Below, piece by piece: positions 12,026 to 31,282 of a stretch of DNA of 64,000 nucleotides. A model generated the notes under the pieces. It was not told the DNA's origin, made no database searches, and saw nothing but the letters and a program-made list of their open reading frames with translations. The translations under genes and the position numbers were made by a program. Source of the stretch: Syntrophales bacterium. Lineage in GTDB: Bacteria; Desulfobacterota; Syntrophia; Syntrophales; UBA2210. The DNA is taken from assembly GCA_963662405.2 (NCBI GenBank), contig CAXXKT010000001.1, forward strand, positions 2,656,001 to 2,720,000. Direction: 5' to 3'. Position 1 is the first letter of the stretch, and the number at the start of each line of letters is the position of its first letter.

Positions 12026-12074
12026 GGGACTTCTAATCCGTAGGTCCCGGGTTCGAATCCCTGCTGGCGTACCA
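12026..12074 (+). repeat. att core, 3' half of tRNA-Arg(TCT); right junction of A and left junction of B
   Basis: GGGACTTCTAATCCGTAGGTCCCGGGTTCGAATCCCTGCTGGCGTACCA, identical to 31234-31282; anticodon loop CTTCTAA; no 5' half. Confidence 0.92.
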
Positions 12075-12076
12075 AT

Positions 12077-13269: not shown

Positions 13270-13271
13270 AT

Positions 13272-13330
13272 GCCCAACAACAGGCTTGACGGCACGCGAT
13301 AAACCGCGCCCGTCAACCTGAGCGTTAAAG
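13272..13330 (+). repeat. attC site 1 (59 bp)
   Basis: GCCCAAC...imperfect palindrome...GTTAAAG. Confidence 0.88.
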
Positions 13331-13349
13331 CTATAAGGAACAAGATGAT

Positions 13350-14102: not shown

Positions 14103-14164
14103 CCAGTCGTTCCACCGGATCGGCGGGGAAAAGCAATCGCCTCCCGGTGAGCTCTTTATTAGCA
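14097..14164 (+). repeat. attC site 2 (core degenerate, ATT instead of GTT)
   Basis: CCCTAAC...CACCGG/CCGGTG stem...ATTAGCA; TTAGCA complements TGCTAA of the next attC. Confidence 0.75.
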
Positions 14165-14183
14165 AATTTAATGGAGTAGCAAA

Positions 14184-14864: not shown

Positions 14865-14868
14865 TTTT

Positions 14869-14964
14869 TGCTAACCTAGCACTTCAAAAGAAAGCGAGGG
14901 CGGGGCGACCGTGCAAAATTGAATATCTGTATCGCCCTGACTTCTGGTGAGTTTACTGTTCGCA
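14869..14964 (+). repeat. attC site 3 (96 bp)
   Basis: TGCTAAC...GTTCGCA; stem partly degenerate. Confidence 0.65.
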
Positions 14965-14980
14965 GGAAAAGGTAACAAAA

Positions 14981-15700: not shown

Positions 15701-15712
15701 ATTTTGATTGCC

Positions 15713-15767
15713 TGCTAACCACAAAATTCGGGGGACGGATTCCCGCCCCTGATTTTAGGCGTTGCTG
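15713..15767 (+). repeat. attC site 4 (55 bp), last of array 1
   Basis: TGCTAAC-CACAAAATTCGGGGGACGG...CCGCCCCTGATTTTAGGC-GTTGCTG. Confidence 0.82.
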
Positions 15768-15806
15768 ATTACCAATTGATCTTGCCCCGAAAAAGTGGAC
15801 ACCCCA

Positions 15807-16655
15807 CTAAGTTACACACGCTTTTCGTTCAAACTCAGCGGGAGAGCAATAATTCAATGATGAATGTCTTCTAACGCAATTATAGAAAACTTCGATATAT
15901 TCGAATATGCTCCCGCGAGCTTCCTGTCTTGTCTGATACTTCTCAAAATAAACAAGCTCCGTCTTTAAGGTATGGAAAAACGATTCCATAAGAGCATTGT
16001 CGTAACAATTCCCCGAAGAGTTCATGCTCTGAATAAAACCATATTTCTCCATCAGCCCCTGAAAAGCATAGCTGGTATATTGAGTTCCACGATCTGAATG
16101 AAACATAACACCAGCTTTGGGTCGCCGCTGCCTGATCGCCTTGTGCAAGGCATCTGCAAGAATCTTATGACTCAATCTGTTATCCATCGACCATCCAATA
16201 ATCTTACGATTGAAAACATCCAGGATCGCTGCCAGATAAAGCCAACCCTCTCTCGTCCAAATAAGGGTAATATCAGAAACCCACACCTTGTTGGCCACAT
16301 CTGTCGAAAATCTCCGATTTAAAAGATTATCCGCCACTAAAAACTCATGCTTGGATTTTTTGGTGGCCTTGAACCTGCGTTTCGTCTTTGCCTTAATCCC
16401 ATGACTCTTCATCAGGTGAGCCACTCGTTTCCTGCTACACTTAATCCCGTGGGCCTGAAGTTCCGCTGTCACCCTCGGGCTACCATATGTGCCGCGACCC
16501 TTTATGAAAGCGTCCCGAATATACATCAGCAACCGCTCATTCTCTCTCTGGCGGTCACTCTTGCTGTGTTTCCCCCATATGTAATAACCGCTCCTGGATA
16601 CCCCCAGCACTCGGCACATCTTCTTCACCGAAAATTCGGAACGGTGATTTTCCAT
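15807..16655 (-). CDS. IS3 transposase OrfB (DDE)
   Basis: WVSDIT, HSDRGTQY, DNALMESFF; in -1 frame after the A7G slippery site near 16699-16706. Confidence 0.93.
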   Translation of the reverse strand: MENHRSEFSVKKMCRVLGVSRSGYYIWGKHSKSDRQRENERLLMYIRDAFIKGRGTYGSPRVTAELQAHGIKCSRKRVAHLMKSHGIKAKTKRRFKATKKSKHEFLVADNLLNRRFSTDVANKVWVSDITLIWTREGWLYLAAILDVFNRKIIGWSMDNRLSHKILADALHKAIRQRRPKAGVMFHSDRGTQYTSYAFQGLMEKYGFIQSMNSSGNCYDNALMESFFHTLKTELVYFEKYQTRQEARGSIFEYIEVFYNCVRRHSSLNYCSPAEFERKACVT

Positions 16656-16666
16656 GAACTCATACT

Positions 16667-16969
16667 TTACTTTGGGTGTTTCGAGAAGATGGCCAACGCT
16701 TTTTTTAAGATTTCCCTCTCCTCCCTTAAGCTCTCATTCTCCCGCCGCAACCGACGAAGTTCCTCCTCAGGTGCCTTCAAATGACCTTTCCCGGGAAAAG
16801 CTTGCTCCATGTCCGCCCGATATTTACGCCTCCACTGATGAAGCAGGTTTTTATGAACATTCAAATCCTTAGCTAGATCACTTACAGAACGTTTACCTTC
16901 ATCCATTAACCGAATCGCCTCATACTTAAACTCCCGATCAAAATACCGCTTATCCTTCCCATTAACCAT
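16667..16969 (-). CDS. IS3 transposase OrfA
   Basis: FDREFKYEA...HTH...EREILKKA; RBS GAGGAGG. Confidence 0.9.
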   Translation of the reverse strand: MVNGKDKRYFDREFKYEAIRLMDEGKRSVSDLAKDLNVHKNLLHQWRRKYRADMEQAFPGKGHLKAPEEELRRLRRENESLREEREILKKALAIFSKHPK

Positions 16970-17220
16970 GACATGCCTCCTCGTTACTCTATGTCTATAA
17001 GAGAAACTCTTCGGTATGTCCACTAAATCGGGGGAAGACCAAATAGTAATCTGCTACGAACAGGCCCATTCAAGTTTTGTTTGTTACAGGAAGAATCGCG
17101 CAGCAAAAGTATTTCTTGGACACTCCTACGGCGATCCTTCCACTCTTCACCTACAAACACTCAGAACAATGCCATAAGAAATTCATTGATTACTGATTGA
17201 AGGTTTCGCAGTGAAATCTC

Positions 17221-17368
17221 TTGACAATACGTCATCATAGAGTTACCTAAATCGTGGTTTTGATCTTGACATTTTTTATGCTTGTGCTGGCTGTACCAAT
17301 TAGGATTATGATCTGATCATTGAAAGCCCTGTTTCTCAAAAAGAGAGATGGGGCTTTTTTGTTTTTTT
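17221..17368 (+). promoter_or_regulatory. Promoter-leader-terminator element, copy 2 (ahead of array 2)
   Basis: TTGACA-N17-TA...GATTATGATCTGA...AAAGCCCTGTTTCTC/GAGAGATGGGGCTTT + T tract. Confidence 0.7.
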
Positions 17369-17556
17369 GGGCAACTTAGAAAATATCGGGGTTACGTGAA
17401 CGCGGAAAAGAGTATTACATAGTTTCTGTATAACACACCTCAATAAACGAAGGTTTTCATAATAATCTTTGTATTACAGTAAGTTGTAATGATTTTTTCC
17501 GCAATTGAAATATGTATTACGTAGCTGTTTCAGCTATGTTTGGTTTTTATACAGAA

Positions 17557-17578
17557 ACAATATAAACACTGTTGCTGC
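17557..17578 (+). other. attI-like site 2
   Basis: AATATAAACACT-G|TTGCTGC; shares ATAAACAYTG with site 1; GTTGCTGC nearly complements GCAGCTAAC of attC5. Confidence 0.68.
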
Positions 17579-17591
17579 ATAAGGAGTGACC

Positions 17592-18479
17592 ATGAAAATC
17601 CCCGTAAGCATAGAACCCGATGAAGAAGGTTATATTGGAAGAGAATGTCCAGTTTGTAAGAAATATTTTAAAGTTAAATTCGGTACTGGGTTGCATGGAG
17701 TGACTGATTGCTATTGCCCATATTGTAATCATAAAGATTCGCAAGATAATTTTTGGACAAGACAACAGATTGAATATGCAAAATCGATAGCCCTTAATCA
17801 AGTCACCAGTGATCTCCTGAAGAGCCTAAAAAAGTTAGAGCGTAGACCAAAACCAAATCAACTTATTTCTATCGGTATAACTGTCAAAGGACAACCAACA
17901 CCGATTATTTACTATTCCGAAGAAGAACTAGAGCAGAAGGTCACGTGTAATCAGTGTACTTTAGAATATGCTATTTATGGAGCATTTGGTTATTGCCCTG
18001 ATTGTGGCATTCATAATTCAAAGCAAATTGTATCTGCAAACTTTGATCTCATATTAAGAATTTTGGCATTATCAGTTAATGCGGAAGGTGACATCAAATC
18101 AAAGTTAATCGAAAACTCTCTAGAAGATGCAGTATCAGCCTTCGACGGTTTTGGCCGTGAACATTACTCAAGTGCATACCCCCAAATATCATTTCAAAGT
18201 ATATCGTTTGCTCAGACAAAAATTCTAACTGATTCCCAGGTTGATATATCTTCTGGCTTGTCTCCAAAGGAATGGGATTTTGTAGTGGAGCAATTTCAGA
18301 AAAGGCACTTGATAGCACACAAAATGGGTATAATCGATGACGAGTTTATAAGAAAAACTGGAACATCATCTTCTTTGGTTGGTAGGAAGGTTTCAATTAC
18401 AGAAGAAGATGTCCGAAAATTTATTTCTTATTTGTTGGTCATAACAGATAATTTACTTACAGGTATTCCACGCAGCTAA
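17592..18479 (+). CDS. Cassette 5: multi-CxxC Zn-binding protein with C-terminal HEPN-like motif
   Basis: CPVC, CPYC, CNQC, CPDC; KRHLIAH (RxxxxH); RBS TAAGGAG. Confidence 0.7.
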   Translation: MKIPVSIEPDEEGYIGRECPVCKKYFKVKFGTGLHGVTDCYCPYCNHKDSQDNFWTRQQIEYAKSIALNQVTSDLLKSLKKLERRPKPNQLISIGITVKGQPTPIIYYSEEELEQKVTCNQCTLEYAIYGAFGYCPDCGIHNSKQIVSANFDLILRILALSVNAEGDIKSKLIENSLEDAVSAFDGFGREHYSSAYPQISFQSISFAQTKILTDSQVDISSGLSPKEWDFVVEQFQKRHLIAHKMGIIDDEFIRKTGTSSSLVGRKVSITEEDVRKFISYLLVITDNLLTGIPRS

Positions 18480-18532
18480 CAACAGCATCCAGACCGACGC
18501 GCTACGTGCGCGGCTGATGCTGAGCGTTCGGT
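18474..18532 (+). repeat. attC site 5 (59 bp)
   Basis: AGCTAAC-AACAGCATCCAG...CTGATGCTGAGC-GTTCGGT. Confidence 0.88.
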
Positions 18533-18545
18533 TTAGATAAAAACT

Positions 18546-19103
18546 ATGCCTCTAAATCATACATCTCAGTTTTCTGAATTAACAGACAAGCAATTTAACC
18601 TAATTGGCAAAATTGTGGTTGAATGGGCCAATGTCGAATTTATGCAAAAACTAATATTAAGCAGGCTTCTATTTTCGGCGGAATTCATTAGTCGGACATA
18701 TACAGATCGAATGAGTGCCGTGAGGATTCAGGACGCAATAAAGGAATCCGTTGATCTTCATCGTCACAGATACTGCGGAGAGATCATAAGTGAAGACATA
18801 TTGTCTGAAATTGAAAAAGTGAATAATGAAGTTCATGATGCAAGAGCACATAGAAATAGATTCGCACACTTTTGCTGGACTCGTAACACAGATGAAGAAA
18901 TTTTTGGTACAAATTTTTCTGCAGGTTTACCAGGTAGCAAAAAATATAGAAAATCCGACATTGTTATAACGAACAAAGAGTTGGAACAGCTCTATAAGGA
19001 ATCATATAATTTGGTGGATAAAATCAATCAACTCATTGAGAAGCTTCCAGAGATTGAGGAAGATGATTTAACAAAAAGACCAAAAACCGAACAACGGCAT
19101 TAA
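18546..19103 (+). CDS. Cassette 6: HEPN-like helical protein
   Basis: IGKIVVEWANVE; HRNRFAH (RxxxxH). Confidence 0.65.
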   Translation: MPLNHTSQFSELTDKQFNLIGKIVVEWANVEFMQKLILSRLLFSAEFISRTYTDRMSAVRIQDAIKESVDLHRHRYCGEIISEDILSEIEKVNNEVHDARAHRNRFAHFCWTRNTDEEIFGTNFSAGLPGSKKYRKSDIVITNKELEQLYKESYNLVDKINQLIEKLPEIEEDDLTKRPKTEQRH

Positions 19104-19148
19104 GGGAGGCGGCACAAAAGCCGCCGCGCCTTATGCCGGGCGTTCGAC
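19086..19148 (+). repeat. attC site 6 (63 bp)
   Basis: ACCGAAC...CGGCATTAAGG/CCTTATGCCG...GTTCGAC; AAACCGAAC exactly complements the cassette start GTTCGGTTT. Confidence 0.88.
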
Positions 19149-19163
19149 ACTATAGGAGAAACG

Positions 19164-20723
19164 ATGAAAACTCTAAAATTACGAGATCTTCAGATAGGTA
19201 ATATTGATGCAAAAAATGAGCTTCTCACTGGTTCAGAACAAGAAATTGATTTTTTCCGCAAGGGCTTCTGTCTTCCACCTAATATAGTGCTCCAGGATTT
19301 TTTAGGTTCAAAAAAATATTATGTGACAGGCTTAAAGGGAATCGGAAAAACAGCACTCTTAAGATATATAGCACTTGAAGCTGAAAGACAGTTTGGTGCC
19401 ACATGTTCATTTATCTTGTTTAAGAGCGATGTAAAAGAGCAAGATCGTAAAGACATCTGTCGCGTCGCTAGGGCCGAATTAATTGAAAAAAATCTCGAAG
19501 ATTATGATGGAAATGATTTTGAAGTTGTTTGGAAATGGTTTTTGCATAGAAAGATAGTTGATACTATTCGAGAATGTAATTTAAAGTTATTTCAAGATGA
19601 CGACAATTTTAGAAAATATGAGAAGTGTGTAACCGCTCCAAAACTTGATGAAAAATCATCCGGGATTAAACGACTAATACCCAACCTAAAAAAGGGTTCT
19701 ATAGAAATTAGTGAAAATCCGAAGATTGGTTTGGATTTTGATTGGGAGGATAAAGGTAAAACTCGTGTTAAGTTTCATAGTCTAACCAAACAAGCTGATC
19801 AACTTTTTCAGGAATTAAGGCCAGCAGATGGACACCTTCGTCTGTTTTTAGATGAATTGGAATTAAGCTTAGGCTCCCAAAAACAGTATAAAAGAGATGC
19901 AACCCTGATCAGAGATTTGATTATAGCTGTTGAGCAAATCAATTCAGTTGCAAAAAAAATGAGATATAACTTAACCATCTATGCTGGAATTCGTTCTGAA
20001 GTTCTTTCCGCAATTGAATCAGTCGGTAAAGAAATAAACAAAATTATTGGTGATTTCGGAAGCCAAATTGTATGGCATCAGTCCGGTTCTGATAATGAAA
20101 ACCACCCGTTGCTCAACATCATTGTTCAGAGAATATCTATCTCGGAAAACACTAATAAATCAGAGCGTGGCAACCTAAAATCTATAATTTGGAATAAATA
20201 TTTTCCAATATCAATTCAGGGAATTAAGTCCGAGAAATATATCCTTCACAATTCATGGTATCGACCTAGGGATATGGTTCGACTTCTTAATCTGGCAAGG
20301 GATCAATTCCCTGATGTAAGTGGGTTCACTCAAAGAGTTTTCGATGGAACACGAAAGCAATACAGTCAAGAAAGCTGGATAGAATTAGCAGAGGAATTAA
20401 GTGTCAAATATTCTCAACAAGAATTAGTCGCCATTCAACAGATATTCAATGGATATAAAAGAGAATTTTCTTTTATAGACCTTCAGGGTCATATCGAAAA
20501 AAGGCGGAAATTATATCCTGCTGTTGATAAGGCTCTGGTATCACATGCAATTGGCGAAATATTAACTGATTTATACAATATTGGATTTGTAGGTAATGTA
20601 ATTTACTCGGGTAGGAGAGGAATTAGTCCTAAAATGCGCTTTAGCTTTAGAGGTGATCCCAATTTGATTATAGAAGAAAAGATCACTGTACATAAAGGTT
20701 TGTATTCCTTTTTTACATTATGA
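19164..20723 (+). CDS. Cassette 7: P-loop ATPase (Sll1717/FunZ-like)
   Basis: IGNIDAKNE, GLKGIGKT Walker A, LFLDELE Walker B, RPRD. Confidence 0.75.
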   Translation: MKTLKLRDLQIGNIDAKNELLTGSEQEIDFFRKGFCLPPNIVLQDFLGSKKYYVTGLKGIGKTALLRYIALEAERQFGATCSFILFKSDVKEQDRKDICRVARAELIEKNLEDYDGNDFEVVWKWFLHRKIVDTIRECNLKLFQDDDNFRKYEKCVTAPKLDEKSSGIKRLIPNLKKGSIEISENPKIGLDFDWEDKGKTRVKFHSLTKQADQLFQELRPADGHLRLFLDELELSLGSQKQYKRDATLIRDLIIAVEQINSVAKKMRYNLTIYAGIRSEVLSAIESVGKEINKIIGDFGSQIVWHQSGSDNENHPLLNIIVQRISISENTNKSERGNLKSIIWNKYFPISIQGIKSEKYILHNSWYRPRDMVRLLNLARDQFPDVSGFTQRVFDGTRKQYSQESWIELAEELSVKYSQQELVAIQQIFNGYKREFSFIDLQGHIEKRRKLYPAVDKALVSHAIGEILTDLYNIGFVGNVIYSGRRGISPKMRFSFRGDPNLIIEEKITVHKGLYSFFTL

Positions 20724-20734
20724 GTGTAAAAAAT

Positions 20735-20807
20735 GTCGAACATCAGCTTGGAGAAGGATACTCATTACGCTGCGCTTCATTCGCACCTCTCAAGCTGGGC
20801 GTGAGAT
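20735..20807 (+). repeat. attC site 7 (73 bp; core GTG instead of GTT)
   Basis: GTCGAAC-ATCAGCTTGGAGAAGG...CCTCTCAAGCTGGGC-GTGAGAT. Confidence 0.85.
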
Positions 20808-20820
20808 TTCGGAGGAAGAT

Positions 20821-21150
20821 ATGGCACTACCTAGCTATAAGGATATCGTCGAACTCCTTAAGAAGGGAGCAACGATTGAGGCTCAAGAAAAGATTATGGA
20901 GCTCCGCGAAGCAGCTCTTGCGCTTCAAGAGGAGAACATTAATTTAAAAAACAAGGTCTTGGAGCTCCAGGGAAAAGTTCGTAAATTAGAATCATTTGAA
21001 GGTGAGCCATGTCCTAAATGTCGAAAACCAGCTTGGGTTGTGGAGTCAAGCAAGCCGGACAGTACGCTTGGTGACCTAGGTGTTATCCGTCGAGTTTATC
21101 GCTGCACTGAATGCGGGTTCTCCGAATCACAATTGGTGACGCCAAAATGA
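20821..21150 (+). CDS. Cassette 8: small coiled-coil + Zn-ribbon protein
   Basis: AQEKIMELREAALALQEEN; CPKC...CTEC; RBS GGAGG. Confidence 0.75.
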   Translation: MALPSYKDIVELLKKGATIEAQEKIMELREAALALQEENINLKNKVLELQGKVRKLESFEGEPCPKCRKPAWVVESSKPDSTLGDLGVIRRVYRCTECGFSESQLVTPK

Positions 21151-21151
21151 A

Positions 21152-21214
21152 ATCTAACCCCACGGTCAATCGGGACGCGCCAAAAGCGGCGCGCCCCTTA
21201 CCTTCACGTTAGGC
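21152..21214 (+). repeat. attC site 8 (63 bp)
   Basis: ATCTAAC...GGGACGCGCC/GGCGCGCCCC...GTTAGGC. Confidence 0.85.
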
Positions 21215-21439
21215 TAAATTTTAAGTCTCATGCAATTATTACTTAATGTTAGCGTATTTTGACCCGATTATGCGAATCCAGTTTGTCGGTTACAATTGAA
21301 ATGGCAATGATCACACGGTTATTGTTGCCGCCGTGGCATGCCTTGCTGTTTGGCAATTTTTGGATAAGCAGGAAAAGGCAACCGTCACAGATGGTGGGCA
21401 ATAATCGATAAAATAGCGTATAGCCAAGCTTGGCGGAAT

Positions 21440-23935
21440 ATGAGTAACGATTTAATAAGAAACAACCATTACGTCCCTATTTGGTATCAAAAGAATTTCT
21501 TATCTTCAAAGAAAGCGGCTTTCCATTACCTCAACCTTTATCCGGATAAAATTGAATTACCTAACGGCAAAGTAAATTTTAAAAATCAGATATGTTGGCC
21601 ATTCTCTCCTAAACAGTGTTTCTATCAAACTGATTTATACACGACTTCTTTTCTGGGTTATCGAAACGACGAAATCGAACGTTACCTTTTTGGTAAAATA
21701 GATAGCGATGGATCAATAGCCATTAAAGCATTAATGGACCTGAATTATCGTTTATTCCATGACTACTTTCTCAAAGTTTTTGAATACATGGATATTCAAA
21801 AGCTTAGAACACCCAAAGGACTAACATGGTTAAGTCAAAAGTTTTCAATGATTACCCATAATCAGCTTTTGTTTGAGATGCAGAAGATACGAAGGCTGCA
21901 TTGTACATTATGGGCAGAAGCTGTGAAAGAAATTGTTTTGGCCAATAATTCCAAGATAAAGTTTATCGTGTCCGACCATCCAGTGACAGTCTATAATGCG
22001 GCTTGTCCGCCCAACTCAACTGAATGCAAATATCCAAACGACCCTAGAATTGAAATGCAGGGAACACAAACGATTTTCCCTCTGGATTCCAATCGATGTC
22101 TAATTTTAACAAATTTGGATTATGCTAAAAACCCCAGTTTGCAGAACCTTAAAAAATATAGACCAAATCCAAATCCTTTTCGAAACACAATGATCAGATA
22201 TGATAACATCATTAATGAGAGAGAATTATCAGAAGATGATGTTGCGCATATCAACTGGATAATTAAGTCTCGCGCATCACAATATTTAGCTGCCGAAGAA
22301 AAGGAGTGGCTATTCCCAGAAAACAGGGTTTGTCCCGATTGGGCCAAATGCGGTCAAGTGCTAATACCTCCCAGTAATAAGCTTTATAAATTTGGAGGTG
22401 AGATATACGTTGGATACGAAGATGGTTCATCTGCATACTTTGACCAATATGGACGAAGAGAACCAGAATCGGAATTTTTAAGGAAAAAGCAAAAAGCTGG
22501 AAAAATAGGAGCAAATGACCCTTGCCCATGCGGAAGCGGAAAAAAATATAAGAAATGTTGCAGAGATAAACCTGTTGATGAACGGCCCGCCAGTGACGTT
22601 CTAAGTATTCGTGAGCGCAACCTATTTTTTCTCGACATCGTTACAGGAATTTTGGGGGTGAATAGGAGCGGAGACTTAGACTGGGATGAGCTACGTAGAA
22701 ATTTAACCAATGAAAAAATTGCAGAGATATATAAGGCGGTCGCAGCATTATGGCCGCCATCTACTGATTTATTTGCACTTCTCCCAAGACCAGACTCTAA
22801 TGTCCTGAGAGCTTTGTTTACAGGTATAATTGACCCACGTGTGACGTATATAAGCATGGCCTGTTTTTCCTTTTATGCAGACGAGATTTTAGTTCAAAGT
22901 CCTTTTGCAAACCCACACAACATGAGGGAAGAATTTAATCCTATAAAAAACCCTGGGAAATATAGGGATGAAACAATAAAAAACCTGTTTTTCTTATTTT
23001 TAATAATTCCGTGGATTGAAATTGGCGTGATTAATTTATTCCCAGACCCGTGGAATTTTAATTTCGCATTGATGGAGACCGTTATGGAGGCAGCTGAAAA
23101 AAGGAAAGATTCGATAACCTTCGATGAAAAATCATTCAAACAAATGGAAAAATTGTTCTTTGAAGACTATAAACGAACTTTATTCACAATGCCGGATAAA
23201 AACCTTCGGGCTTTTATTCGCCATACATCTCAAGACCTCTCAGAAGAAGAAATATCTAAGCTTATCGAATATACTAAACGAATGAATGCTCAAGATCCGC
23301 TTGTGGATCTGAATCCTGATAAGCCAGGAAAAGAATCAAGCCAGATGCTAATATCACGCACAACTCCAAACATGGAAATGACAATGCTTCTGGCACAAGC
23401 AACTGGTTCAATGATAATAACAGACAATTCTTTCAGGTGGTTTGAAATATGCTCATCAATTCCTTACTACTATGGCCTCAGCAAAAACCCCTGGGCTAAA
23501 TTTGAAACCTTCGCATCTGATTATCCTGTTCAGTTTCCATTGATCGTTGAACAACTATCCCACATGCAGGAGCTAAAGAAATCAGAATTCATGTCTGTAA
23601 AGAGGGTGCTAAAACGATTGTGGAATTCCATTAATGCGGATCAGGCACCAGATAATGCTCAGATTGATCATTTGCAAGAGGAGTTTGATATCGCTCAAGA
23701 GGTAATGTCTAAATCAATCGAAAAATTGGTCCAAAAAGGTGAAAAGGCTACCGACACATCTCCTTACCCAAGGCCAATGAACATAGACGCAAAATTGAGT
23801 TGCAAAATATCACCGATTGGGCATATCAATAATTTGGTATATCGATTATTGATAAGCTATGCGGGACATGATAAGTACCTTAAATCGCTTCCATTGTCTC
23901 TGTATGTAGAATATGGAAACAAGGAGAGAGCCTAA
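21440..23935 (+). CDS. Cassette 9: DUF4238 + SEC-C motif protein (831 aa)
   Basis: NHYVPIWYQKNF, FIVSDHPV, IFPLDS; KIGANDPCPCGSGKKYKKCC. Confidence 0.82.
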   Translation: MSNDLIRNNHYVPIWYQKNFLSSKKAAFHYLNLYPDKIELPNGKVNFKNQICWPFSPKQCFYQTDLYTTSFLGYRNDEIERYLFGKIDSDGSIAIKALMDLNYRLFHDYFLKVFEYMDIQKLRTPKGLTWLSQKFSMITHNQLLFEMQKIRRLHCTLWAEAVKEIVLANNSKIKFIVSDHPVTVYNAACPPNSTECKYPNDPRIEMQGTQTIFPLDSNRCLILTNLDYAKNPSLQNLKKYRPNPNPFRNTMIRYDNIINERELSEDDVAHINWIIKSRASQYLAAEEKEWLFPENRVCPDWAKCGQVLIPPSNKLYKFGGEIYVGYEDGSSAYFDQYGRREPESEFLRKKQKAGKIGANDPCPCGSGKKYKKCCRDKPVDERPASDVLSIRERNLFFLDIVTGILGVNRSGDLDWDELRRNLTNEKIAEIYKAVAALWPPSTDLFALLPRPDSNVLRALFTGIIDPRVTYISMACFSFYADEILVQSPFANPHNMREEFNPIKNPGKYRDETIKNLFFLFLIIPWIEIGVINLFPDPWNFNFALMETVMEAAEKRKDSITFDEKSFKQMEKLFFEDYKRTLFTMPDKNLRAFIRHTSQDLSEEEISKLIEYTKRMNAQDPLVDLNPDKPGKESSQMLISRTTPNMEMTMLLAQATGSMIITDNSFRWFEICSSIPYYYGLSKNPWAKFETFASDYPVQFPLIVEQLSHMQELKKSEFMSVKRVLKRLWNSINADQAPDNAQIDHLQEEFDIAQEVMSKSIEKLVQKGEKATDTSPYPRPMNIDAKLSCKISPIGHINNLVYRLLISYAGHDKYLKSLPLSLYVEYGNKERA

Positions 23936-24476: not shown

Positions 24477-25016
24477 TCAGAAGGGCCTTATCCGGTTCAT
24501 AATCTCCTTGCTTTCAAGATACATCATATTGTCCCGTGTAACCGGAACATTCATTTCCCGGCCAACATCACGAATCGCATTTTCGATCGCGATGATTTCA
24601 GCACCAAGATCGTCAAGGCGCCGATTAAAAATCTCCTCTTGGGATCGCCGATACCTCGCGACTATTGTGTGAAGATCCCGTTTTAGATCCTCTTCAATCG
24701 GGTTGGCCTGTGTTTCCAGATCGGGGAGAATATCGTCTGATATTTCAGTAACCCACCGTTCCACACTTTGGAGACTTGCTGTTAGGCGTATCTCTTCCTG
24801 ATGCAAAGCCTCCGGATCGTTACCTTTGAGGATTGCATTTTTCATTTCGCCACGAACCTTCCTCAGCTCTTCCGTCAGTGCTTTCTTCTTTGCCTCAGCT
24901 TCTGCCAGATGCTTCCGTGCATTGCCTTCCTGCTTCCTCAGGCTTTCCCGCGTTTTGAGAAGGTTGTTAAATTCCTTATTCCCACCGATGATCTCTTTCA
25001 ATTTGTTTTGGTTCAT
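24477..25016 (-). CDS. Coiled-coil hypothetical protein (satellite late module)
   Basis: RBS AAGGAG; heptad-rich. Confidence 0.7.
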   Translation of the reverse strand: MNQNKLKEIIGGNKEFNNLLKTRESLRKQEGNARKHLAEAEAKKKALTEELRKVRGEMKNAILKGNDPEALHQEEIRLTASLQSVERWVTEISDDILPDLETQANPIEEDLKRDLHTIVARYRRSQEEIFNRRLDDLGAEIIAIENAIRDVGREMNVPVTRDNMMYLESKEIMNRIRPF

Positions 25017-25047
25017 GTGTCATTGCTCCTTTAATTTAGTAGTTTGA

Positions 25048-25326
25048 TTATTTAGCCGCTACGGCCATGTTGTGCTGATCGTGATACTTCTCAAAAACGA
25101 GCGGGAGCACATCTTCCCCGCCGGCGGCGATCCGGTCTTGATACTTTGCATACAGTCCGGGATATCGCTTCCGGGCTTCAAGAAGGGCATCTTGCCGGGA
25201 CATACCCCGTCCGTAAAAATGCCCAACGGCGATTTCATAGAATTCATGTTCTCCGCCCTGAACTTTCCATTTCTGGTACATCTCCTTGACTGCTTCGTTT
25301 AGTGTATTCCTTTCCCTGTCATTCAT
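25048..25326 (-). CDS. Hypothetical protein (92 aa)
   Basis: RBS GGAGGT before ATG 25326. Confidence 0.65.
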   Translation of the reverse strand: MNDRERNTLNEAVKEMYQKWKVQGGEHEFYEIAVGHFYGRGMSRQDALLEARKRYPGLYAKYQDRIAAGGEDVLPLVFEKYHDQHNMAVAAK

Positions 25327-25340
25327 GTCTCTCCACCTCC

Positions 25341-25721
25341 TTAAGGGTTTATGTGCTCTCGAATTAAGGCCGCTATAACGCGGGACAAATCTTGATAGTC
25401 CTGGTTTTCTTTTTGAAAGGTTTGCACCTCCGGCAATAGAGCGCTGGCATCTCTGTACTTTTTCGGATTCAAATGCTGTGCAAATGCAATACAAATTCCC
25501 GCGTTGTATGAGGTAAGCAACCCGTGGATCTCATCGGGTGGGTTTGTTTTGTAATTTTGAAGCCAATCCCAGCATTCATCAGGGTCAAAAAGCCATGCAA
25601 CACCGCGGCCTCCTTTAACCCGGTACGGCATGCCCGCCCGGAGATATCTGTTAAGCGTGAACATGGAACATTCCAGTTCGTCGCACAAATGCTGCTTGTT
25701 CATTAACCCTTCAGTTTCCAT
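25341..25721 (-). CDS. Terminase small subunit-like (lambda Nu1-type winged HTH)
   Basis: MNKQHLCDELECSMFTLNRYLRAGMPYRVKGGRGVAWLFDPDECWDW resembles the Nu1 N-terminus; directly downstream of the cos-like site. Confidence 0.65.
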   Translation of the reverse strand: METEGLMNKQHLCDELECSMFTLNRYLRAGMPYRVKGGRGVAWLFDPDECWDWLQNYKTNPPDEIHGLLTSYNAGICIAFAQHLNPKKYRDASALLPEVQTFQKENQDYQDLSRVIAALIREHINP

Positions 25722-25995: not shown

Positions 25996-27600
25996 TCATC
26001 GATACCAGTTCCCAGCCCTTACGAATCTGTAACCTTGGTGAACTTCAAAATTGATCTTGTTCAGTGACGGCATCGGGTCCGCCTCTCGGAAGCGATTCTT
26101 CACAATTTCAAATTTCCCCCACTCCAAGGAAAGGGCAAGAGTAGCGGCCTTGATAGAGTACACGCCCCCGGTCCCCATCGTTGCACCTGGTTTCTTCTGA
26201 ATCGTTATGAGAGCAGTTCCCTTGTTCAGTCGTCGGATAATGGCACTGATGACACCATGGATATTGAAAGCTCGTTCCCCTTCGGGTTCCAAATAATCAA
26301 CAACGTTGAATGCATCCGGTTGGATCTTATCGGCAATGTTGTTGAAGTCCCATTGATCGATAACTTTCATTCCCTTTGCCCACTCTTCAATGGGAATGGG
26401 GAAATGGGAGAGCTTTTGTTTCAATGCTTCCGGTCCCATCTCGCTGTTGAAATAGTAGGTGGGAAATTCCTTCATGTTCGAGGCAATGGCATTAAAGGCA
26501 AAGAGGGTCTTTCCCATACCCGATACACCGGCAACCACAATGACACCCTTCGGAAAGATCTTGGTCTTGTTGTGAAGTCCCAGAGGGAGAGACAGGTTTA
26601 CTGAGTTCCCGATATCGGCATTGAGAAAATCCATGAACTCGATATCGCGTTCAATACGTCGATAGCATCCGCGCCGGTTTCCATGTTTTTCAAGAAGCGG
26701 TTCCGGTCCCTCGCAAAGGCGTTTTAAAGCCATGTGTGCCGCTTGCATTTCTGATCTTGTTGACAGTTGTAACTCTTTGTTGACATCTGTTGACGTGAAG
26801 TTGCCATTTGTTGACAACACCCATTCACGAATTTCAGCGGTAATATTTCGATCGCGTTTTTCAGATCGCTTCAATGCGCTCTCAATCTTTGCACTGATTT
26901 CTATTTCCGGGAATGGTGGTGTACAGTTATTGGCAAGGATATAAAGGACTTGTTTGATGAACTGAAGCTCACCGCCACCTTTTATGAGCAGATTTGCAGC
27001 GTGGAAAAGGTCATCATCGCGGGTCCCTTGATGAAAATATTTGTTGACAGCGTTGACATTGTTGACTTGCGTTGACTCCTGAAAATTGCCCTTATATATA
27101 TTAAAAGATTTTATATTATATAGGGCATCGGGGCACGGTGCTGTTTCCACTTCAAAGATGCTCAGGGCATTCAGCCAGGCATACCGTTGGCCGGTGCCAT
27201 TAACGGAAGGGGGAGCAATGATATAACCTCCCTCACCTCGAACATCAACACCCGGCATAATGCCCGCGGCATTGCCGATGTGCTCCCCCTTCGGATAGAC
27301 AAGATAGATGTGATAGCCTCTCGGGGTTTTTGCGATACACGTTATGAAATTGTCCGGTAAGAGCTCTTGAATCTTCCTGTACGCTTCCTCATTATCGCAG
27401 TCGATAACCAGCACCCCGGATAGCGGACCGGTTACAATCCCGATCATTGCTTTTGGCCATTTTCCCCACCATTGCCTGATCTCTTCCGGTGTTGCTTTCT
27501 TGGTTTGATAGTCGGTCCAGGGGATGTACGGTTTTTTGTCCGGTCTGACAGGTATAACGGACAGTCCAAGATTTTCATATTTGAGGGCATGGCTTAACAT
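25996..27600 (-). CDS. Bifunctional primase-polymerase (prim-pol) fused to a P-loop helicase
   Basis: GLSVIPV, IGIVTG...VIDCD, TPRGYHIY, DVRGEGGYIIAPPS; AGVSGMGKT, VVDY. Confidence 0.88.
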   Translation of the reverse strand: MLSHALKYENLGLSVIPVRPDKKPYIPWTDYQTKKATPEEIRQWWGKWPKAMIGIVTGPLSGVLVIDCDNEEAYRKIQELLPDNFITCIAKTPRGYHIYLVYPKGEHIGNAAGIMPGVDVRGEGGYIIAPPSVNGTGQRYAWLNALSIFEVETAPCPDALYNIKSFNIYKGNFQESTQVNNVNAVNKYFHQGTRDDDLFHAANLLIKGGGELQFIKQVLYILANNCTPPFPEIEISAKIESALKRSEKRDRNITAEIREWVLSTNGNFTSTDVNKELQLSTRSEMQAAHMALKRLCEGPEPLLEKHGNRRGCYRRIERDIEFMDFLNADIGNSVNLSLPLGLHNKTKIFPKGVIVVAGVSGMGKTLFAFNAIASNMKEFPTYYFNSEMGPEALKQKLSHFPIPIEEWAKGMKVIDQWDFNNIADKIQPDAFNVVDYLEPEGERAFNIHGVISAIIRRLNKGTALITIQKKPGATMGTGGVYSIKAATLALSLEWGKFEIVKNRFREADPMPSLNKINFEVHQGYRFVRAGNWYR

Positions 27601-27836
27601 CGAAATCCCCCACCGGCCAATTCAGCTAGGATTATTTTTTCGACTCGTTCCTGCACATCGTCTCCCTTGGAACACTCGGCACACAAGCAATATCTCAGAA
27701 TCCGCGTCTTACCCTTTGTCGCTCCCCAGGATTCAGGATCTTTGGGCACGAAGATTCCGACTATTGCCGGGGGTCCCCCACAGAGGAGGCAAAAATCATC
27801 GGGAAATGGTTTTTGTAGTTTCCGGTGTCCTATCAT
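27594..27836 (-). CDS. Small Cys-rich (Zn-binding) protein
   Basis: CLLC...CLCAEC; overlaps neighbouring ORFs. Confidence 0.6.
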   Translation of the reverse strand: MIGHRKLQKPFPDDFCLLCGGPPAIVGIFVPKDPESWGATKGKTRILRYCLCAECSKGDDVQERVEKIILAELAGGGFRC

Positions 27837-28048
27837 CGTTTTGCCTCCGCGTAGGCAACCAGCCTATCCACCAGCAACGACGGCAACCGGGAGTAGGGAA
27901 GAAAGGTCAAGAGTCCCGCGATCCGAAAGGCCAGCTTCGCTCTCCTGGAATCCCGATTCGCCGTTATTGTTTTCCCCCGATGGAGAGCGGCACCGTATTC
28001 AGAATCAGTGAGAATGATTATCCCGTCGTTTGTTGGGATGCGCTTCAT
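27833..28048 (-). CDS. Hypothetical protein (71 aa)
   Basis: ATGA overlap with the upstream xis-like gene; RBS GAGG. Confidence 0.55.
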   Translation of the reverse strand: MKRIPTNDGIIILTDSEYGAALHRGKTITANRDSRRAKLAFRIAGLLTFLPYSRLPSLLVDRLVAYAEAKR

Positions 28049-28251
28049 GGCCGTTCCTCGATACTGTCCATGGTTTTTACCGGATTCGAAAAAAGCCATG
28101 CTTCAAATTGATCGACACGGTACAAAATCTTTCCATATACTCGAAGGTAAGGAGGCCCCTTCTTTTGACTTCTGTAATTCGCCAGGGTTCCCAGATTCAA
28201 ATTGTAAAACTCCGCTGCTTGCCGTGGTGTGATCGTCCTGCTCTGCATCAT
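28045..28251 (-). CDS. Excisionase/AlpA-like HTH protein
   Basis: ITPRQAAEFYNLNLGTLANYRSQKKGPPYLRVYGKILYRVDQFEAWL; RBS GGAGGTGA. Confidence 0.85.
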   Translation of the reverse strand: MMQSRTITPRQAAEFYNLNLGTLANYRSQKKGPPYLRVYGKILYRVDQFEAWLFSNPVKTMDSIEERP

Positions 28252-28280
28252 GTCACCTCCATGTTTTTCCCGTATGCTCA

Positions 28281-28297
28281 TTGCTATCTCCGTGCCA
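28281..28297 (-). promoter_or_regulatory. sigma54 -24/-12 promoter of the xis-primase operon
   Basis: TGGCAC-GGAGA-TAGCAA (GG-N10-GC), about 30 nt before the xis start. Confidence 0.8.
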
Positions 28298-28405
28298 CAC
28301 AAAAAAAGGCAATTAGGTATAGATCTAATCGCCCGTAATTAAAGCAAATCCTTGTTGATAAGGTTTAATTCACGCCATGGAGGCTTTCCGAAAAATATCG
28401 TGGCA

Positions 28406-28443
28406 GTGACCGTTACTCGTCACAAGTGACGCCTGGCGGTCAC
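28406..28443. promoter_or_regulatory. Tandem enhancer (UAS) palindromes
   Basis: GTGAC-N8-GTCAC at 28406-28423 and 28426-28443, 20 bp apart, 110-145 bp upstream of the sigma54 promoter. Confidence 0.7.
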
Positions 28444-29807
28444 TTCTTTGTGATTCCTAATCGTTTTAATCTACCCTTCAGTGTGGTCTCGTTCAGGCCT
28501 AAGTGCTCTGCGGCTGCCCTTTTGGTTTGATGTTTTTCAACCGCAAATTGATAGTGGACTTTTCGCAGCTCGGCTTCGGTCATATCCAAGAGGTGGTCAG
28601 TTTCAGAAAGTTCTTTGTTCTTGGGTGCTGGCAGTGGGTCTGTCTCTCTTAATTCACCGGTCAGTCCAACATACTTTTTACAGTCGGCGATCAGTTTTCG
28701 ATGTTTTGCCGTCGGTTTTTTGAATAACAGAGATTCAGGTGGAACGGGAGGTAGCACTCTTCCCGTACGCTCAGAGAGTAGGTTGATGTTGGCCATGCAA
28801 CTTTTGCAGAAGAGGCCACTGAAAAGGTCCAACCCAAAAAAAAGGTCAAGGTGAGACAAGTTATCAAGGGATACATTTTCAAAAGGTTTCGCTGTGTTGT
28901 GACAATCGAGCCCAATAGAAAAGCGGTTGAGTTCCTTTTCCAAAAACGCAACATCGATGCCGTTCATTTTTAGGCTGTTGTAGAAGCGTTGACAGGCATA
29001 CCATGTCAATTTCGTCTGTGTCATTGTCGCAGCTTCGAAAAAACTCGAATCTATGGAAGGAATATGGCGGTTGGGGTTTTTTATTCTTTCAATTTTTATA
29101 CATTCGATTTCCTTACAAAAGGTCTCTAACTCGCGAACGTTCCCGGGCCAGTTATGGGAAAGCAAGGTCATCATCTCCCAAGGATGAAGTTCCCGCAGTG
29201 TGTCCAGCGCGAAATAGGCGAAGTAATATAAAATATCCTCGCGCCGCTCATGAAGAGCGGGAACAGTGAAGTGGAAAAACCGGTGGTAAAAGTCTGGGCG
29301 AAAGTCTTTTTCAGTATCGAACCGTTTATTCGTGGTCGCTATTATTTGGATATCCTTTGCTGTGCTTATCTTATTATCACCAAGACGAACGTATTGATTA
29401 TCTTCAATAAACGTCAGGAGCTTCGATTGAGTGAAGGGAGTCAATTCACCGATTTCTTCCAGAATGAGCAAGTCAGCCTTTTCAACAAGTCCTTCTCTCG
29501 TCTCGGCTGCTCCAGTAAATGCACCCTTGCGGTGGCCAAATAATTGAGACTCAATGAGGGTTTCGGGAAAAGCGGAAATATTGACGTGTACCACAGCCGC
29601 ATCTGGATTTTTTTCTCCATACTGTTTTTTAAACTCTTTGACGAAAAGGGTTTTACCGACCCCCGTATCCCCCATGATCATTAGAGGCGTCTTGCGTTTT
29701 GAGCTCAACAGGACATCACAGACAGCTTCAAAACTCTCCATGGATCTATCAAGGGATGGCGGAACAAGCCACCACGTCCTTTCCTTTTTTTCTATTTCCG
29801 TCCCCAT
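28440..29807 (-). CDS. sigma54-dependent enhancer-binding protein lacking an N-terminal sensor domain
   Basis: GDTGVGKT, GAFTGA, LILEEIGEL, FRPDFYHRF, WPGNVRELE, C-terminal Fis-type HTH. Confidence 0.9.
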   Translation of the reverse strand: MGTEIEKKERTWWLVPPSLDRSMESFEAVCDVLLSSKRKTPLMIMGDTGVGKTLFVKEFKKQYGEKNPDAAVVHVNISAFPETLIESQLFGHRKGAFTGAAETREGLVEKADLLILEEIGELTPFTQSKLLTFIEDNQYVRLGDNKISTAKDIQIIATTNKRFDTEKDFRPDFYHRFFHFTVPALHERREDILYYFAYFALDTLRELHPWEMMTLLSHNWPGNVRELETFCKEIECIKIERIKNPNRHIPSIDSSFFEAATMTQTKLTWYACQRFYNSLKMNGIDVAFLEKELNRFSIGLDCHNTAKPFENVSLDNLSHLDLFFGLDLFSGLFCKSCMANINLLSERTGRVLPPVPPESLLFKKPTAKHRKLIADCKKYVGLTGELRETDPLPAPKNKELSETDHLLDMTEAELRKVHYQFAVEKHQTKRAAAEHLGLNETTLKGRLKRLGITKK

Positions 29808-29812
29808 GCTTA

Positions 29813-31003
29813 CTACTCCCTGTGTTTTTCGATGGTATGTACTTCGATACCCTTGCCGCCGTTAAAGGTCGCTTCAATCCCGTTCACGGCGTCCCGCTTA
29901 TGATCCGGGGAGAGGTGACTGTACCGTTCCGACATGCTGATTGACTTATGACCCATAAGGCGAGCAATGGTATAGAGGGGGGTTCCCTGAATTGCAAGCC
30001 AGGAAGCAAAGGTGTGTCTCAGGGTATGAAAAACAATCCTTTGACGGGGATCGTTAACCCCCTCATTAAATTTCAGTCGATCGACAACCCGGCCAAAGGC
30101 GTTTGATACCTCCTTGATCTGCTCACTGTCCTTCGTTGTAAAGATCAAGGCGCTCCGATCTTCCGGCATCCTTCGCCGAAGAATATCTTGCACATCTTTT
30201 GTCATGGGAGCATATCGGGTTTCTTTATTTTTGGTATCTCTGAGAGCTATCAAGTCGTGATTAAGGTCAATGTCGCTCCCGGTCAGACTGAAGAGTTCCC
30301 CCGCACGTGCTCCTGTATGCAGAGATACAAGAGCCATGTCGTGCAACTGAGGGTCTTTCAACTCTTTATATTCTTCTTTGTTCCAAGGGTTTCGTTTGAG
30401 TTCCTTCAATAAGGCGTTCGCTTCCTCTACTGAGAGAAAACGGTTTCTTTGGTTCTGTATCGAAGGCATCTTGACACCCCTCACAGGGTTCGGACCCTGA
30501 TACACGCCCCAGGTTGCGGCCTTATTATAAATCTGTCTTATCAGTACCAGACAATGTTTCACCGTTGCAGGGGAGTAGTCTTTTTTCAAAAGGTCGTTTT
30601 TCATTCGTTCCAAATCGAATGGAGAAATTGAATCAAGGCGTTCATTCGCAAAACGATCCTTGATGTAGCAGTTGTAGCGGGAAATATCATCGGAACCGCC
30701 TCTGCTTTTGTTTAGCTTTGCCCATCCTTCGTATTTTGTCCATACATCAGAGAGTAGGGGAGCCTTCTTTTTCTGTTTAGGCAATTCCTTACCGTGGCGT
30801 TTTGATTGCATCCTATCTGCCCTAATATCAGAAGCAAGTTTTGCAGTATATCCCTCTGACAACCAGCCTATCTTTTCCCACACCTTCTTTCCATCCAGCT
30901 TATAGGTGATATCAAGGCACACATCGGGTTTCCCTTTGAAAGTTCGTTCCAAAGATTCACGCTGATACACCCCCAGGTACTTCGTTCTTTTTCTGGTTGC
31001 CAT
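29813..31003 (-). CDS. int: Tyrosine integrase of island B
   Basis: TGARAGEL, FHTLRHTFAS, MGHKS...RYSH; N-terminal arm-binding-like region. Confidence 0.93.
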   Translation of the reverse strand: MATRKRTKYLGVYQRESLERTFKGKPDVCLDITYKLDGKKVWEKIGWLSEGYTAKLASDIRADRMQSKRHGKELPKQKKKAPLLSDVWTKYEGWAKLNKSRGGSDDISRYNCYIKDRFANERLDSISPFDLERMKNDLLKKDYSPATVKHCLVLIRQIYNKAATWGVYQGPNPVRGVKMPSIQNQRNRFLSVEEANALLKELKRNPWNKEEYKELKDPQLHDMALVSLHTGARAGELFSLTGSDIDLNHDLIALRDTKNKETRYAPMTKDVQDILRRRMPEDRSALIFTTKDSEQIKEVSNAFGRVVDRLKFNEGVNDPRQRIVFHTLRHTFASWLAIQGTPLYTIARLMGHKSISMSERYSHLSPDHKRDAVNGIEATFNGGKGIEVHTIEKHRE

Positions 31004-31087
31004 GTCCGGGCTCCTTTTTTATTGACCGTCAGAAGGGAATGAGCTATATAGCCACAACTTGACAAGAGAGTACGTTGCTTTGGCTCC

Positions 31088-31152
31088 GTGCTACCCTATT
31101 GCTACCCCTAGGAATGAAAAAGGGTTATTTTAAATTAAGTTCAATGCTACCC
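31088..31152 (+). repeat. Integrase arm-type repeats, right end of B
   Basis: GTGCTACCCTATTGCTACCC at 31088-31107 plus TGCTACCC at 31145-31152. Confidence 0.75.
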
Positions 31153-31233: not shown

Positions 31234-31282
31234 GGGACTTCTAATCCGTAGGTCCCGGGTTCGAATCCCTGCTGGCGTACCA
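31234..31282 (+). repeat. att core (right junction of B), displaced 3' half of tRNA-Arg(TCT)
   Basis: Identical to 12026-12074. Confidence 0.92.

Follow-up and report, generated by a model that had tools for sequence, protein, structure and literature searches.

PspF, the phage-shock activator of Escherichia coli, is a bacterial enhancer-binding protein (bEBP) without an N-terminal sensor, and the bEBPs HrpR and HrpS of Pseudomonas syringae likewise lack a sensor, are under the control of a partner (HrpV) and serve one dedicated promoter. Sigma-54 promoters, on which bEBPs act, have very low basal activity. Phage-inducible chromosomal islands (PICIs) under AlpA or Stl control and P4-like satellites are flanked by tRNA genes and carry int, a regulator, xis or alpA, small open reading frames (ORFs), a primase-helicase and defence cargo. 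To our knowledge, the switches of prophages, satellites and integrative elements known so far work through repressors, anti-repressors, AlpA-type activators or quorum signals at sigma-70 promoters. Here we describe an integrated island in 64,000 nt of the genome of a Syntrophales bacterium (phylum Desulfobacterota; GenBank assembly GCA_963662405.2, contig CAXXKT010000001.1, positions 2,656,001 to 2,720,000; hereafter the window, whose numbering is used throughout). Judging from its sequence, the operon for excision and replication of this island is probably gated by a self-contained sigma-54 switch driven by the island's own bEBP.

Organization of the int-bEBP-xis region

Read on the minus strand, the integrase gene (int) is followed by the gene of a sensor-less bEBP, a palindrome pair, a hairpin, the promoter-like sequence TGGCACGGAGATAGCA, a Shine-Dalgarno sequence and the series xis-orf-orf-PrimPol/helicase. 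The int stop and the bEBP start codon are 5 nt apart, and 158 nt separate the bEBP gene from xis. The features are as follows.

29813..31003, minus strand: tyrosine integrase, 396 aa (PF00589, 3.7e-27; phrog_1, 4.6e-67)
28440..29807, minus strand: sensor-less sigma-54 enhancer-binding protein, 455 aa (PF00158, 1.1e-36)
28406..28443, no strand assigned: putative enhancer (upstream activating sequence, UAS), two GTGAC-N8-GTCAC palindromes with centres 20 bp apart
28337..28370, no strand assigned: AT-rich spacer with an imperfect inverted repeat (14-nt arms, 79% complementary)
28300..28334, minus strand: intrinsic-terminator-like hairpin with a 10-bp stem, then T7 (-13 kcal/mol, z -4.0)
28282..28297, minus strand: sigma-54-type promoter TGGCACGGAGATAGCA (GG at 28296/28295, GC at 28284/28283)
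28045..28251, minus strand: xis/AlpA-class HTH_17 protein, 68 aa from ATG 28251 (PF12728, 6.3e-08; phrog_66 excisionase, 6.3e-07)
27833..28048, minus strand: small ORF, 71 aa, no family, its ATG overlapping the xis stop (ATGA)
27594..27836, minus strand: small ORF, 80 aa, no family, with a four-Cys pattern, its start overlapping the preceding stop (ATGA)
25996..27600, minus strand: PrimPol plus DnaB-like helicase replication protein, 534 aa (PF09250, 9.5e-34; weak DnaB_C match; PHROG primases)

The original prediction for this locus had described int followed 5 nt later by a bEBP with a GAFTGA loop, a helix-turn-helix (HTH), no sensor and a long insert, then two GTGAC-N8-GTCAC palindromes 20 bp apart, and a near-consensus TGGCAC-N5-TAGC promoter ahead of xis-ORF-ORF-primase; each of these features was found where it had been placed. 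The palindromes occupy 28426-28443, overlapping the bEBP stop codon, and 28406-28423. The window holds two such palindromes against 0.03 expected (none of 100 shuffles had two or more) and no further GTGAC-N8-GTCAC site even when one mismatch is allowed, and among the seven found in the 3.8-Mb genome the two reported here are adjacent while the other five are isolated singles. Together the pair forms a nested palindrome with four half-sites, and its two sites share one helix face. The exact consensus of integration host factor, WATCAANNNNTTR, is absent between the UAS and the promoter.

None of 200 shuffles folded as well as the hairpin, and its T7 ends 2 nt before TGGCAC. Hairpin and T7 should stop the int-bEBP transcript, which would leave the promoter as the only entry into xis; a simple scan found no sigma-70-like site on the minus strand between 27500 and 31400. 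The promoter stands 109 bp past the proximal palindrome; its distance from the proximal site, as used in the comparison with relatives, is 119 bp. As a pattern, TGGCACGGAGATAGCA has its only window match here (0.05 expected; at least one in 5 of 100 shuffles) and seven matches in the genome. When promoters are scored as matches of 12 against TGGCACG-N4-TTGCW, it reaches 11/12 and is the sole window site of at least 11/12. The genome has 29 sites at this level, a count that includes the real promoters of the host and corresponds to 0.001 expected per 250 bp of one strand. Transcription is predicted to start near 28271, with GGAGG and ATGATG 10-20 nt beyond. An 8-mer common to the promoter and the int-proximal arm of the island, GCACGGAG, was set aside, as its five occurrences in the window make the coincidence probably one of chance. 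Elsewhere in the host genome (G000), sites scoring 11/12 stand just downstream of host bEBP genes and on the same strand at C3:243700, C2:366321, C1:1740209 and C3:347283; judged by sequence, it seems common in this genome for an activator gene to have its own promoter behind it.

The xis product is a small winged-helix protein of the HTH_17/AlpA class beside an integrase module, with a PF12728 score of 33.2 bits (cut-off 27). Its predicted start is most likely ATG 28251 or 28248, in the ATGATG at 28251-28246 behind GGAGG (28261-28257). A start at TTG 28302, as given by the ORF list, would place the promoter inside the xis gene; it was rejected, since HTH_17 would begin at residue 24 of this long form and begins at residue 7 of the short one. 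The PrimPol start also overlaps the stop before it (ATGTTAA), and the successive overlaps ATGA, ATGA and ATGTTAA indicate that xis, the 71-aa ORF, the 80-aa ORF and the PrimPol-helicase gene form one operon.

The activator protein

The bEBP matched PF00158 with 126.4 bits (cut-off 20.2), as an AAA+ activator should, and carries Walker A (GDTGVGKT), GAFTGA (residues 95-100), RxDxxxR and WPGNVRE motifs. As the AAA+ core begins at about residue 35, there is no sensor domain. Between the lid and the C-terminal HTH lie about 165 residues that form a conserved helical insert. We aligned 34 full-length relatives (alignment A1), which are 31-78% identical, 429-540 aa long except for one longer protein, and all of metagenome or metagenome-assembled genome origin. 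Walker A, the glutamate-switch Asn, RxDxxxR and the sensor-II Arg were invariant in 34/34; by residue, G46, G49, G51, K52, D172, R176 and R225 were invariant and R170 was at least 90% conserved, while in GAFTGA F97 was invariant and T98 at least 90% conserved. From conservation across the family, the bEBP is assumed to be a competent ATPase. The insert has its own conserved motifs, SLKMNGIDVxFLEKxLNxFGLGLD and GLxFFxxLF...NLL, and an N-terminal WxxPPxL stretch is also conserved across the family.

The AlphaFold model of the bEBP is confident (pLDDT 88, pTM 0.78). For the AAA+ fold, the best PDB matches were the AAA+ domains of NtrC1, FlrC, FleQ and NifA (NtrC1 1ny5, E 5e-16, 32% identity). The last 55 residues superimpose on the NtrC4 DNA-binding domain 4fth with Z 7.7 and a root-mean-square deviation of 1.6 over 55 residues, and on that of NtrC1 (4l5e) with Z 7.2; the HTH is thus Fis-type by fold, with a weak Pfam HTH_50 match (0.006), and palindrome binding is predicted. 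For the insert no fold was listed: ESM Atlas scores were all below 0.9, Foldseek with the C-terminal model returned nothing at E <=0.001, and the structure-alignment rows were confined to the HTH. As its fold was barely probed, we make no claim of a new fold.

The C-terminal part is rare, being found in 16 of 1.84 billion cluster representatives at E <=0.001 and in 8 at <=1e-10. In 401 genomes of the phylum its family-specific portion matched four genomes besides its own, all in the HTH only, and a C-terminal profile matched none (0/401) in what is apparently the same sample; five named Desulfobacterota genomes gave no match. Among Desulfobacterales genomes, 1 of 401 carried it (G519, with two members), as did one of the two genomes in G519's family. 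None of the NCBIfam bEBP equivalogs (NorR, RtcR, NtrC, NifA, PspF and others) reached its cut-off among the best 25 of 28 matched families, and the best of them, NorR, scored 167 bits against a cut-off of 476. Its residues place the island protein in an uncommon bEBP subfamily that has no name so far and combines an unaltered GAFTGA loop with EE at Walker B. The host itself has rpoN (211 bits, 484-aa open frame, G000:C2:209930-210406) and 36 bEBP matches including the island's own; the approximately 34 other genes are at most 43% identical to the island bEBP.

Relatives of the activator and their loci

Two near-identical metagenome contigs, L175 and L174, encode a bEBP about 44% identical to that of the island. 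In L175, a TAACGGT repeat pair with 20-bp spacing begins at the stop codon, its second copy being a perfect 16-bp palindrome; an AT-rich spacer, a hairpin and T7 follow, and beyond them stands TGGCACACCGCTTGCT. Its distance to the proximal site is 122 bp, against 119 bp in the window. This promoter is a perfect TGGCAC-N5-TTGC and is followed by AAGGAGG and an ATGATG start. Downstream are genes for AlpA (PF05930, 30 bits against 21), small ORFs, a 255-aa protein and a DnaG-type zinc ribbon. The AlpA of L175 has no sequence similarity to the xis of the window and the primase is of a different family, so one regulatory cassette appears on analogous, non-orthologous modules. According to the original prediction, a lack of conservation of promoter and palindromes in homologous islands would have spoken against the switch; L175 and L174 keep the 20-bp pair, the hairpin with T7, the sigma-54 promoter, and AlpA with replication genes.

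A third relative, in a Desulfobacterales genome (L179:8540-11017, G519:C86), is chromosomal and is flanked by solute-binding and chemoreceptor genes, hence the subfamily is not confined to mobile elements. Two GTATGCTA sites are spaced by 20 bp there, and a promoter of 12/12 stands 224 nt past the stop, where it precedes a gene for a signal-peptide PPC-domain protein and a GH5-like gene. The contig L180, which encodes another family member, ends 220 nt after the bEBP stop and has no bearing on the promoter. As a separate observation, L180:80-200 (G519:C126) contains a near-perfect inverted repeat with arms of about 22 nt around GTCACAGCATC, 60 nt past the stop. Four independent family loci extend 230 bp or more beyond the gene, and three of them have the promoter; in these three the gene is followed first by the site pair and then by the promoter. 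Sites vary in sequence from locus to locus, as expected if each HTH co-evolved with its enhancer.

Searches for further relatives gave little. Of 151 pattern matches in a metagenome scan, 3 were relatives, each of them on a short contig. In IMG/VR, queries with the C-terminal profile, PrimPol and Int found none, and tblastn against plasmids and phages gave no match. Scans of genomes and viral contigs with the full-length alignment were abandoned, as the generic bEBP motifs (WPGNVRE and others) drew only unrelated bEBPs. With the other island proteins, tblastn against 176 stored loci found only the island's own loci (L002 and L169) and remote integrases. In the single genome of the same genus that was searched, the island did not turn up. 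A marine sediment metagenome run contains a contig that differs from 27813-28618 at 34 positions and by 2 indels over 806 nt, an identity of about 96%.

Proposed mechanism

From parts, order, spacing, rarity and recurrence that are directly observed, we infer binding, activation, a transcription start, operon read-out and excision along the following lines. The operon would be silent behind the terminator and transcribed only from the sigma-54 promoter when activated by the island's bEBP. The int and bEBP genes would lie on one transcript ending at the hairpin and T7 (28334-28300); bEBP dimers would bind the two 18-bp palindromes through the Fis-type HTH, and the sigma-54 RNA polymerase of the host would wait in a closed complex at 28297-28282. 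Upon a signal, the bEBP would assemble, its GAFTGA loop would contact sigma-54 and ATP hydrolysis would open the promoter, so that transcription would begin near 28271. Xis and Int would then excise the island at the 49-bp repeats that bound it, and the PrimPol-helicase would replicate the circle. Because the bEBP is probably co-expressed with int, its control is more likely post-translational, the signal probably being read by the insert of about 165 aa, by the WxxPPxL stretch near the N terminus or, in the manner of PspF and HrpS, by a partner. The likely benefit of such a circuit is the very low basal activity of its promoter.

The island and its neighbourhood

The integrated island measures 19.2 kb and is bounded by perfect 49-bp direct repeats (100% identity), of which the window has these two copies only. 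The repeats at both ends set its extent at approximately 12026-31282.

12026..12074, plus strand: left attachment (att) repeat, 49 bp, perfect repeat of 31234-31282
31234..31282, plus strand: right attachment repeat, 49 bp, perfect repeat of 12026-12074, being the 3' half of tRNA-Arg(TCT) immediately before tRNA-His
31085..31151, minus strand: arm-type repeats GGTAGCA, 3 copies, between int and the att repeat (repeat family D5)
24477..25721, minus strand: three more core ORFs (126, about 92 and 179 aa), the first an HTH protein, the other two without family
12832..23935, plus strand: low-GC cargo, namely PD-T7-4/DUF4145 (14184-14864), PDC-M14A (17586-18479), a Sll1717-family P-loop ATPase (19164-20723) and an 831-aa DUF4238 plus SEC-C protein (21440-23935), each a defence-type match
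15807-17023, minus strand: IS3 insertion within the cargo

Two further GGTAGCA copies at 12123-12140 lie in the opposite arm, so that the island arms hold 5 of the 10 window copies, and these repeats look like arm-type integrase sites. The GC content is 0.45-0.50 in the island core, 0.32-0.46 in the cargo and 0.55-0.62 in the flanks. A 64-nt repeat (94% identical) occurs after the Sll1717 ATPase and DUF4238/SEC-C genes, at 20739 and 23934.

The right repeat is abutted by tRNA-His at 31295-31371, while an intact tRNA-Arg(TCT) and a second, diverged tRNA-His are found 61 kb upstream in the genome (G000:C1:2626343-2626508). As the intact tRNA-Arg lies that far upstream, the island is the final element of a tandem array at tRNA-Arg. 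The two tRNA-His copies show compensatory T-stem changes, and their downstream flanks are roughly 80% alike, judged by eye; one copy was probably imported by an element of the array. Directly to the left of the island is a second phage-like element, covering approximately 1-12025 of the window and a few kb upstream (L182:5259-9545), with the following genes.

10862-11983: integrase gene of the left element
8836-9416: repressor-like and CII-like regulators
4561-5826: DNA methylase
1905-4331: Zn-ribbon/Toprim/D5 (D5/P4-type) primase

Its lambda-type large terminase gene lies just beyond the window edge, and no capsid or tail genes were recognised in it. Farther to the left, a low-GC defence-type stretch (L181 and L182; G000:C1:2626001-2656000) encodes AbiEi, a 1303-aa SMC-like ATPase, a UvrD-type helicase beside a 606-aa ORF, two DUF488 proteins, and IS3 and IS200 transposases. 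The tRNA-Arg site looks like an integration hot spot.

Of the complete sigma-54 switch on the life cycle of a satellite that had been predicted, the parts and their order were confirmed, the switch as a probable reading is well supported by comparison with relatives, and the satellite and its helper-phage trigger were not supported. The island does have an integrase, att repeats and its own replication module within 10-20 kb, as a satellite would. Nevertheless, no capsid, packaging or helper-hijack gene was recognised in it: Pfam, PHROGs and NCBIfam yielded no terS, cpm/ppi, sid/psu/delta or capsid/portal genes, several ORFs being family-less, and the nearest approach was a weak small-terminase-like match of the 126-aa HTH ORF (phrog_57, 1.2e-4). 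ESM searches linked island ORFs to 'prophage protein' clusters, which are leads only. No complete prophage was identified beside the island. With a neighbouring element that has no recognisable capsid or tail genes and a satellite status that is not established, a helper-phage protein as the trigger was not supported and remains speculation.

Weighing the alternatives

Several observations weigh against a self-contained switch. The -12 element reads TAGC, not TTGC. The first gene of the operon, although of the xis family, could encode an AlpA-kind regulator instead of an excisionase. The Walker B of the bEBP, LLILEE, departs from the canonical hhhhDE, with EE in 34/34 family members against DE in 33/33 readable host paralogues; for PspF, the accessible part of PMC3419264 reports 0.23 per min for the Walker B variant D107A against 39.5, making this Asp a requirement for catalysis, and that part contains no data on a D-to-E substitution. 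Among the relatives, L176 has no promoter within 490 bp downstream, where a convergent aldehyde-dehydrogenase-like gene lies, L174 has 100 nt upstream of its bEBP gene, too little to identify the gene there, and only two independent mobile-element examples were recovered.

One alternative is that the promoter is real but is served by a host bEBP, or that the island bEBP mainly targets cargo or host genes, with no self-control. The abundance of host bEBPs and the ability of bEBPs to activate from solution are in its favour. Nevertheless, we consider it unlikely, as the palindrome pair is unique in the window and matched elsewhere in the genome by isolated single sites alone, the island has no second promoter site of at least 11/12, and the order of gene, sites and promoter with 20-bp spacing recurs in L175 and L179, with site sequences that vary with the diverged HTHs.

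About as improbable, in our view, is that the EE Walker B makes a poor ATPase, the bEBP being a DNA-bound repressor, insulator or sigma-54 trap with activation coming from elsewhere. Glutamate retains the carboxylate, and the remaining catalytic and sigma-54-contact residues are invariant though the family diverges to about 31% identity, which is hard to explain without ATP-driven remodelling; moreover, a sigma-54 promoter requires some activator. These points stand against the uniform EE of the family, the essential Walker B Asp of PspF and the existence of bEBPs that both activate and repress, such as PexR as described in the accessible part of PMC12754779.

The island might also be decayed or domesticated, the circuit persisting without excision or transfer. 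An IS3 copy sits in its cargo, it lies within a 61-kb tandem array of elements, and the contigs show no empty site or circle junction beyond what the native tRNA-Arg/tRNA-His locus explains. Two contig joints that seemed to skip about 19.2 kb were discarded as evidence of excision, as their sides are 22 nt long and the native junction at C1:2626419-2626432 explains them, and in run X8 the zero cover over 24354-31013 proves nothing at a depth of only 2-3. Decay nonetheless seems somewhat less probable than either of the foregoing alternatives: the 49-bp repeats match perfectly, each arm keeps its arm-type repeats, the core ORFs are all intact and translationally coupled, the searched genome of the same genus yielded no such island, and the xis-promoter-UAS stretch has its close copy in the marine sediment run.

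Finally, that the -24/-12 match is coincidental, with xis and replication genes expressed by read-through or from an unrecognised sigma-70 promoter and the palindromes acting as a terminator or an Int/Xis site, is very improbable despite the deviating -12 box, an in-frame ATG at 28281 with an upstream GGAG that could extend xis across the motif, and the possible folding of the palindrome pair as a single RNA hairpin (-19.2 kcal/mol, z -2.9), since about 0.001 such sites are expected per 250 bp and yet they stand at 3/4 informative family loci, the strong hairpin with T7 should block read-through, no T-run follows the palindromes, HTH_17 begins at residue 7 of the short xis, as is usual for such proteins, and L175 has the same ATGATG layout.

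Implications of the proposed island-encoded sigma-54 switch

A self-encoded sigma-54 activator with its own enhancer would follow a different logic from the known switches of mobile elements, being strictly off until the ATPase is triggered. If the bEBP of the island does drive its operon in this way, the mobility of the element would depend on host rpoN, which would limit its host range, and the bEBP/UAS/promoter unit would be a portable cassette of about 1.7 kb that has apparently changed partners, serving excision and replication modules that are not orthologous. A new subfamily of bEBPs would also be defined, with an input domain and an EE Walker B still to be explored, and such a switch would make sigma-54 as an orthogonal expression channel of mobile DNA a directly testable question.

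A broader proposal, which we put forward tentatively and regard as rather doubtful, is that the EE-Walker-B sensor-less subfamily with its helical domain (NGIDV-LEK-LN-GLGL) serves integrative elements of one class as their master switch for induction, and that mobile elements widely use host sigma-54. The helical domain or the WxxPPxL stretch would then sense a signal such as a protein of an infecting phage, and near-zero leak behind the terminator would make the choice all-or-none: to remain integrated, or to excise and replicate. Together with the bEBP cassettes of phages described below, which have the AAA+ domain only, sigma-54 would be a private, orthogonal transcription channel of mobile elements.

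Comparison with known systems

PspF resembles the island bEBP in having an AAA+ core followed by an HTH and no sensor, and control in trans is expected. The island bEBP differs in reaching 128 bits against the NCBIfam PspF cut-off of 443, in its insert of about 165 aa, in its EE Walker B and in its location on a mobile element; no PspA-like partner was identified for it. HrpR and HrpS share with it the absence of a sensor and a single dedicated promoter, but they are a co-dependent pair driving a secretion regulator, whereas the island has one protein and an excision/replication operon. The closest structures to its AAA+ and DNA-binding domains are those of NtrC1 and NtrC4 of Aquifex aeolicus, from which it differs by lacking a receiver domain and by its EE Walker B and the long insert between lid and DNA-binding domain.

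With PICIs and P4-like satellites, the island shares the core gene order and the defence-type cargo. In place of their repressor/anti-repressor systems, however, it carries as regulator a sigma-54 activator together with an enhancer and a -24/-12 promoter of its own, and no terS, capsid-remodelling, psu/sid/delta or capsid genes were found in it. In full-text literature, we found no description of a mobile element with its excision or replication genes under its own bEBP at a sigma-54 promoter, and a review of integrative and conjugative elements (PMC5812530) has RpoN only within a reference.

The nearest parallels on mobile genomes came from IMG/VR. Of 79 viral loci fetched with generic bEBP motifs, many of them on contigs that are probably close relatives of each other, 13 encode AAA+-only bEBPs of 241-257 aa (phrog_7998) with a sigma-54 promoter of 11-12/12 within 3-45 nt of the stop (L141, L145, L152, L154, L156, L157, L159, L160, L163, L164, L166, L167 and L168). 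In L160, TGGCACGGATCTTGCT stands 3 nt after the stop of a bEBP with GSFTGA and a DE Walker B, among helicase, exonuclease, Sak4-like and SSB genes. We found no paper on these phage cassettes; since 13/79 phage loci carry them, the use of host sigma-54 by mobile DNA may exceed what the literature suggests. The island bEBP also matches phrog_7998 (1.2e-27), and the phage proteins resemble it in being encoded on a mobile genome with a consensus sigma-54 promoter directly after the gene. Unlike it, they have no DNA-binding domain and no insert, and the neighbours in L160 are not int or xis.

Two published cases connect phages with bEBPs or their fold. Htm (Gp204) of Mosigvirus AV110 is a phage protein whose AAA+ fold resembles that of bEBPs and whose Walker B is altered (bioRxiv 10.64898/2026.10.06.757011); as far as the accessible part of that preprint goes, it has neither a GAFTGA loop nor an HTH and acts broadly on host genes, whereas the island bEBP has both and its cognate promoter alongside. 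In Salmonella, RtcR is activated by Gifsy-1 prophage genes (PMC9879122). There, according to the accessible part of that article, the prophage genes elicit a response from a bEBP and an operon that both belong to the host, whereas the island owns both the bEBP and its target.

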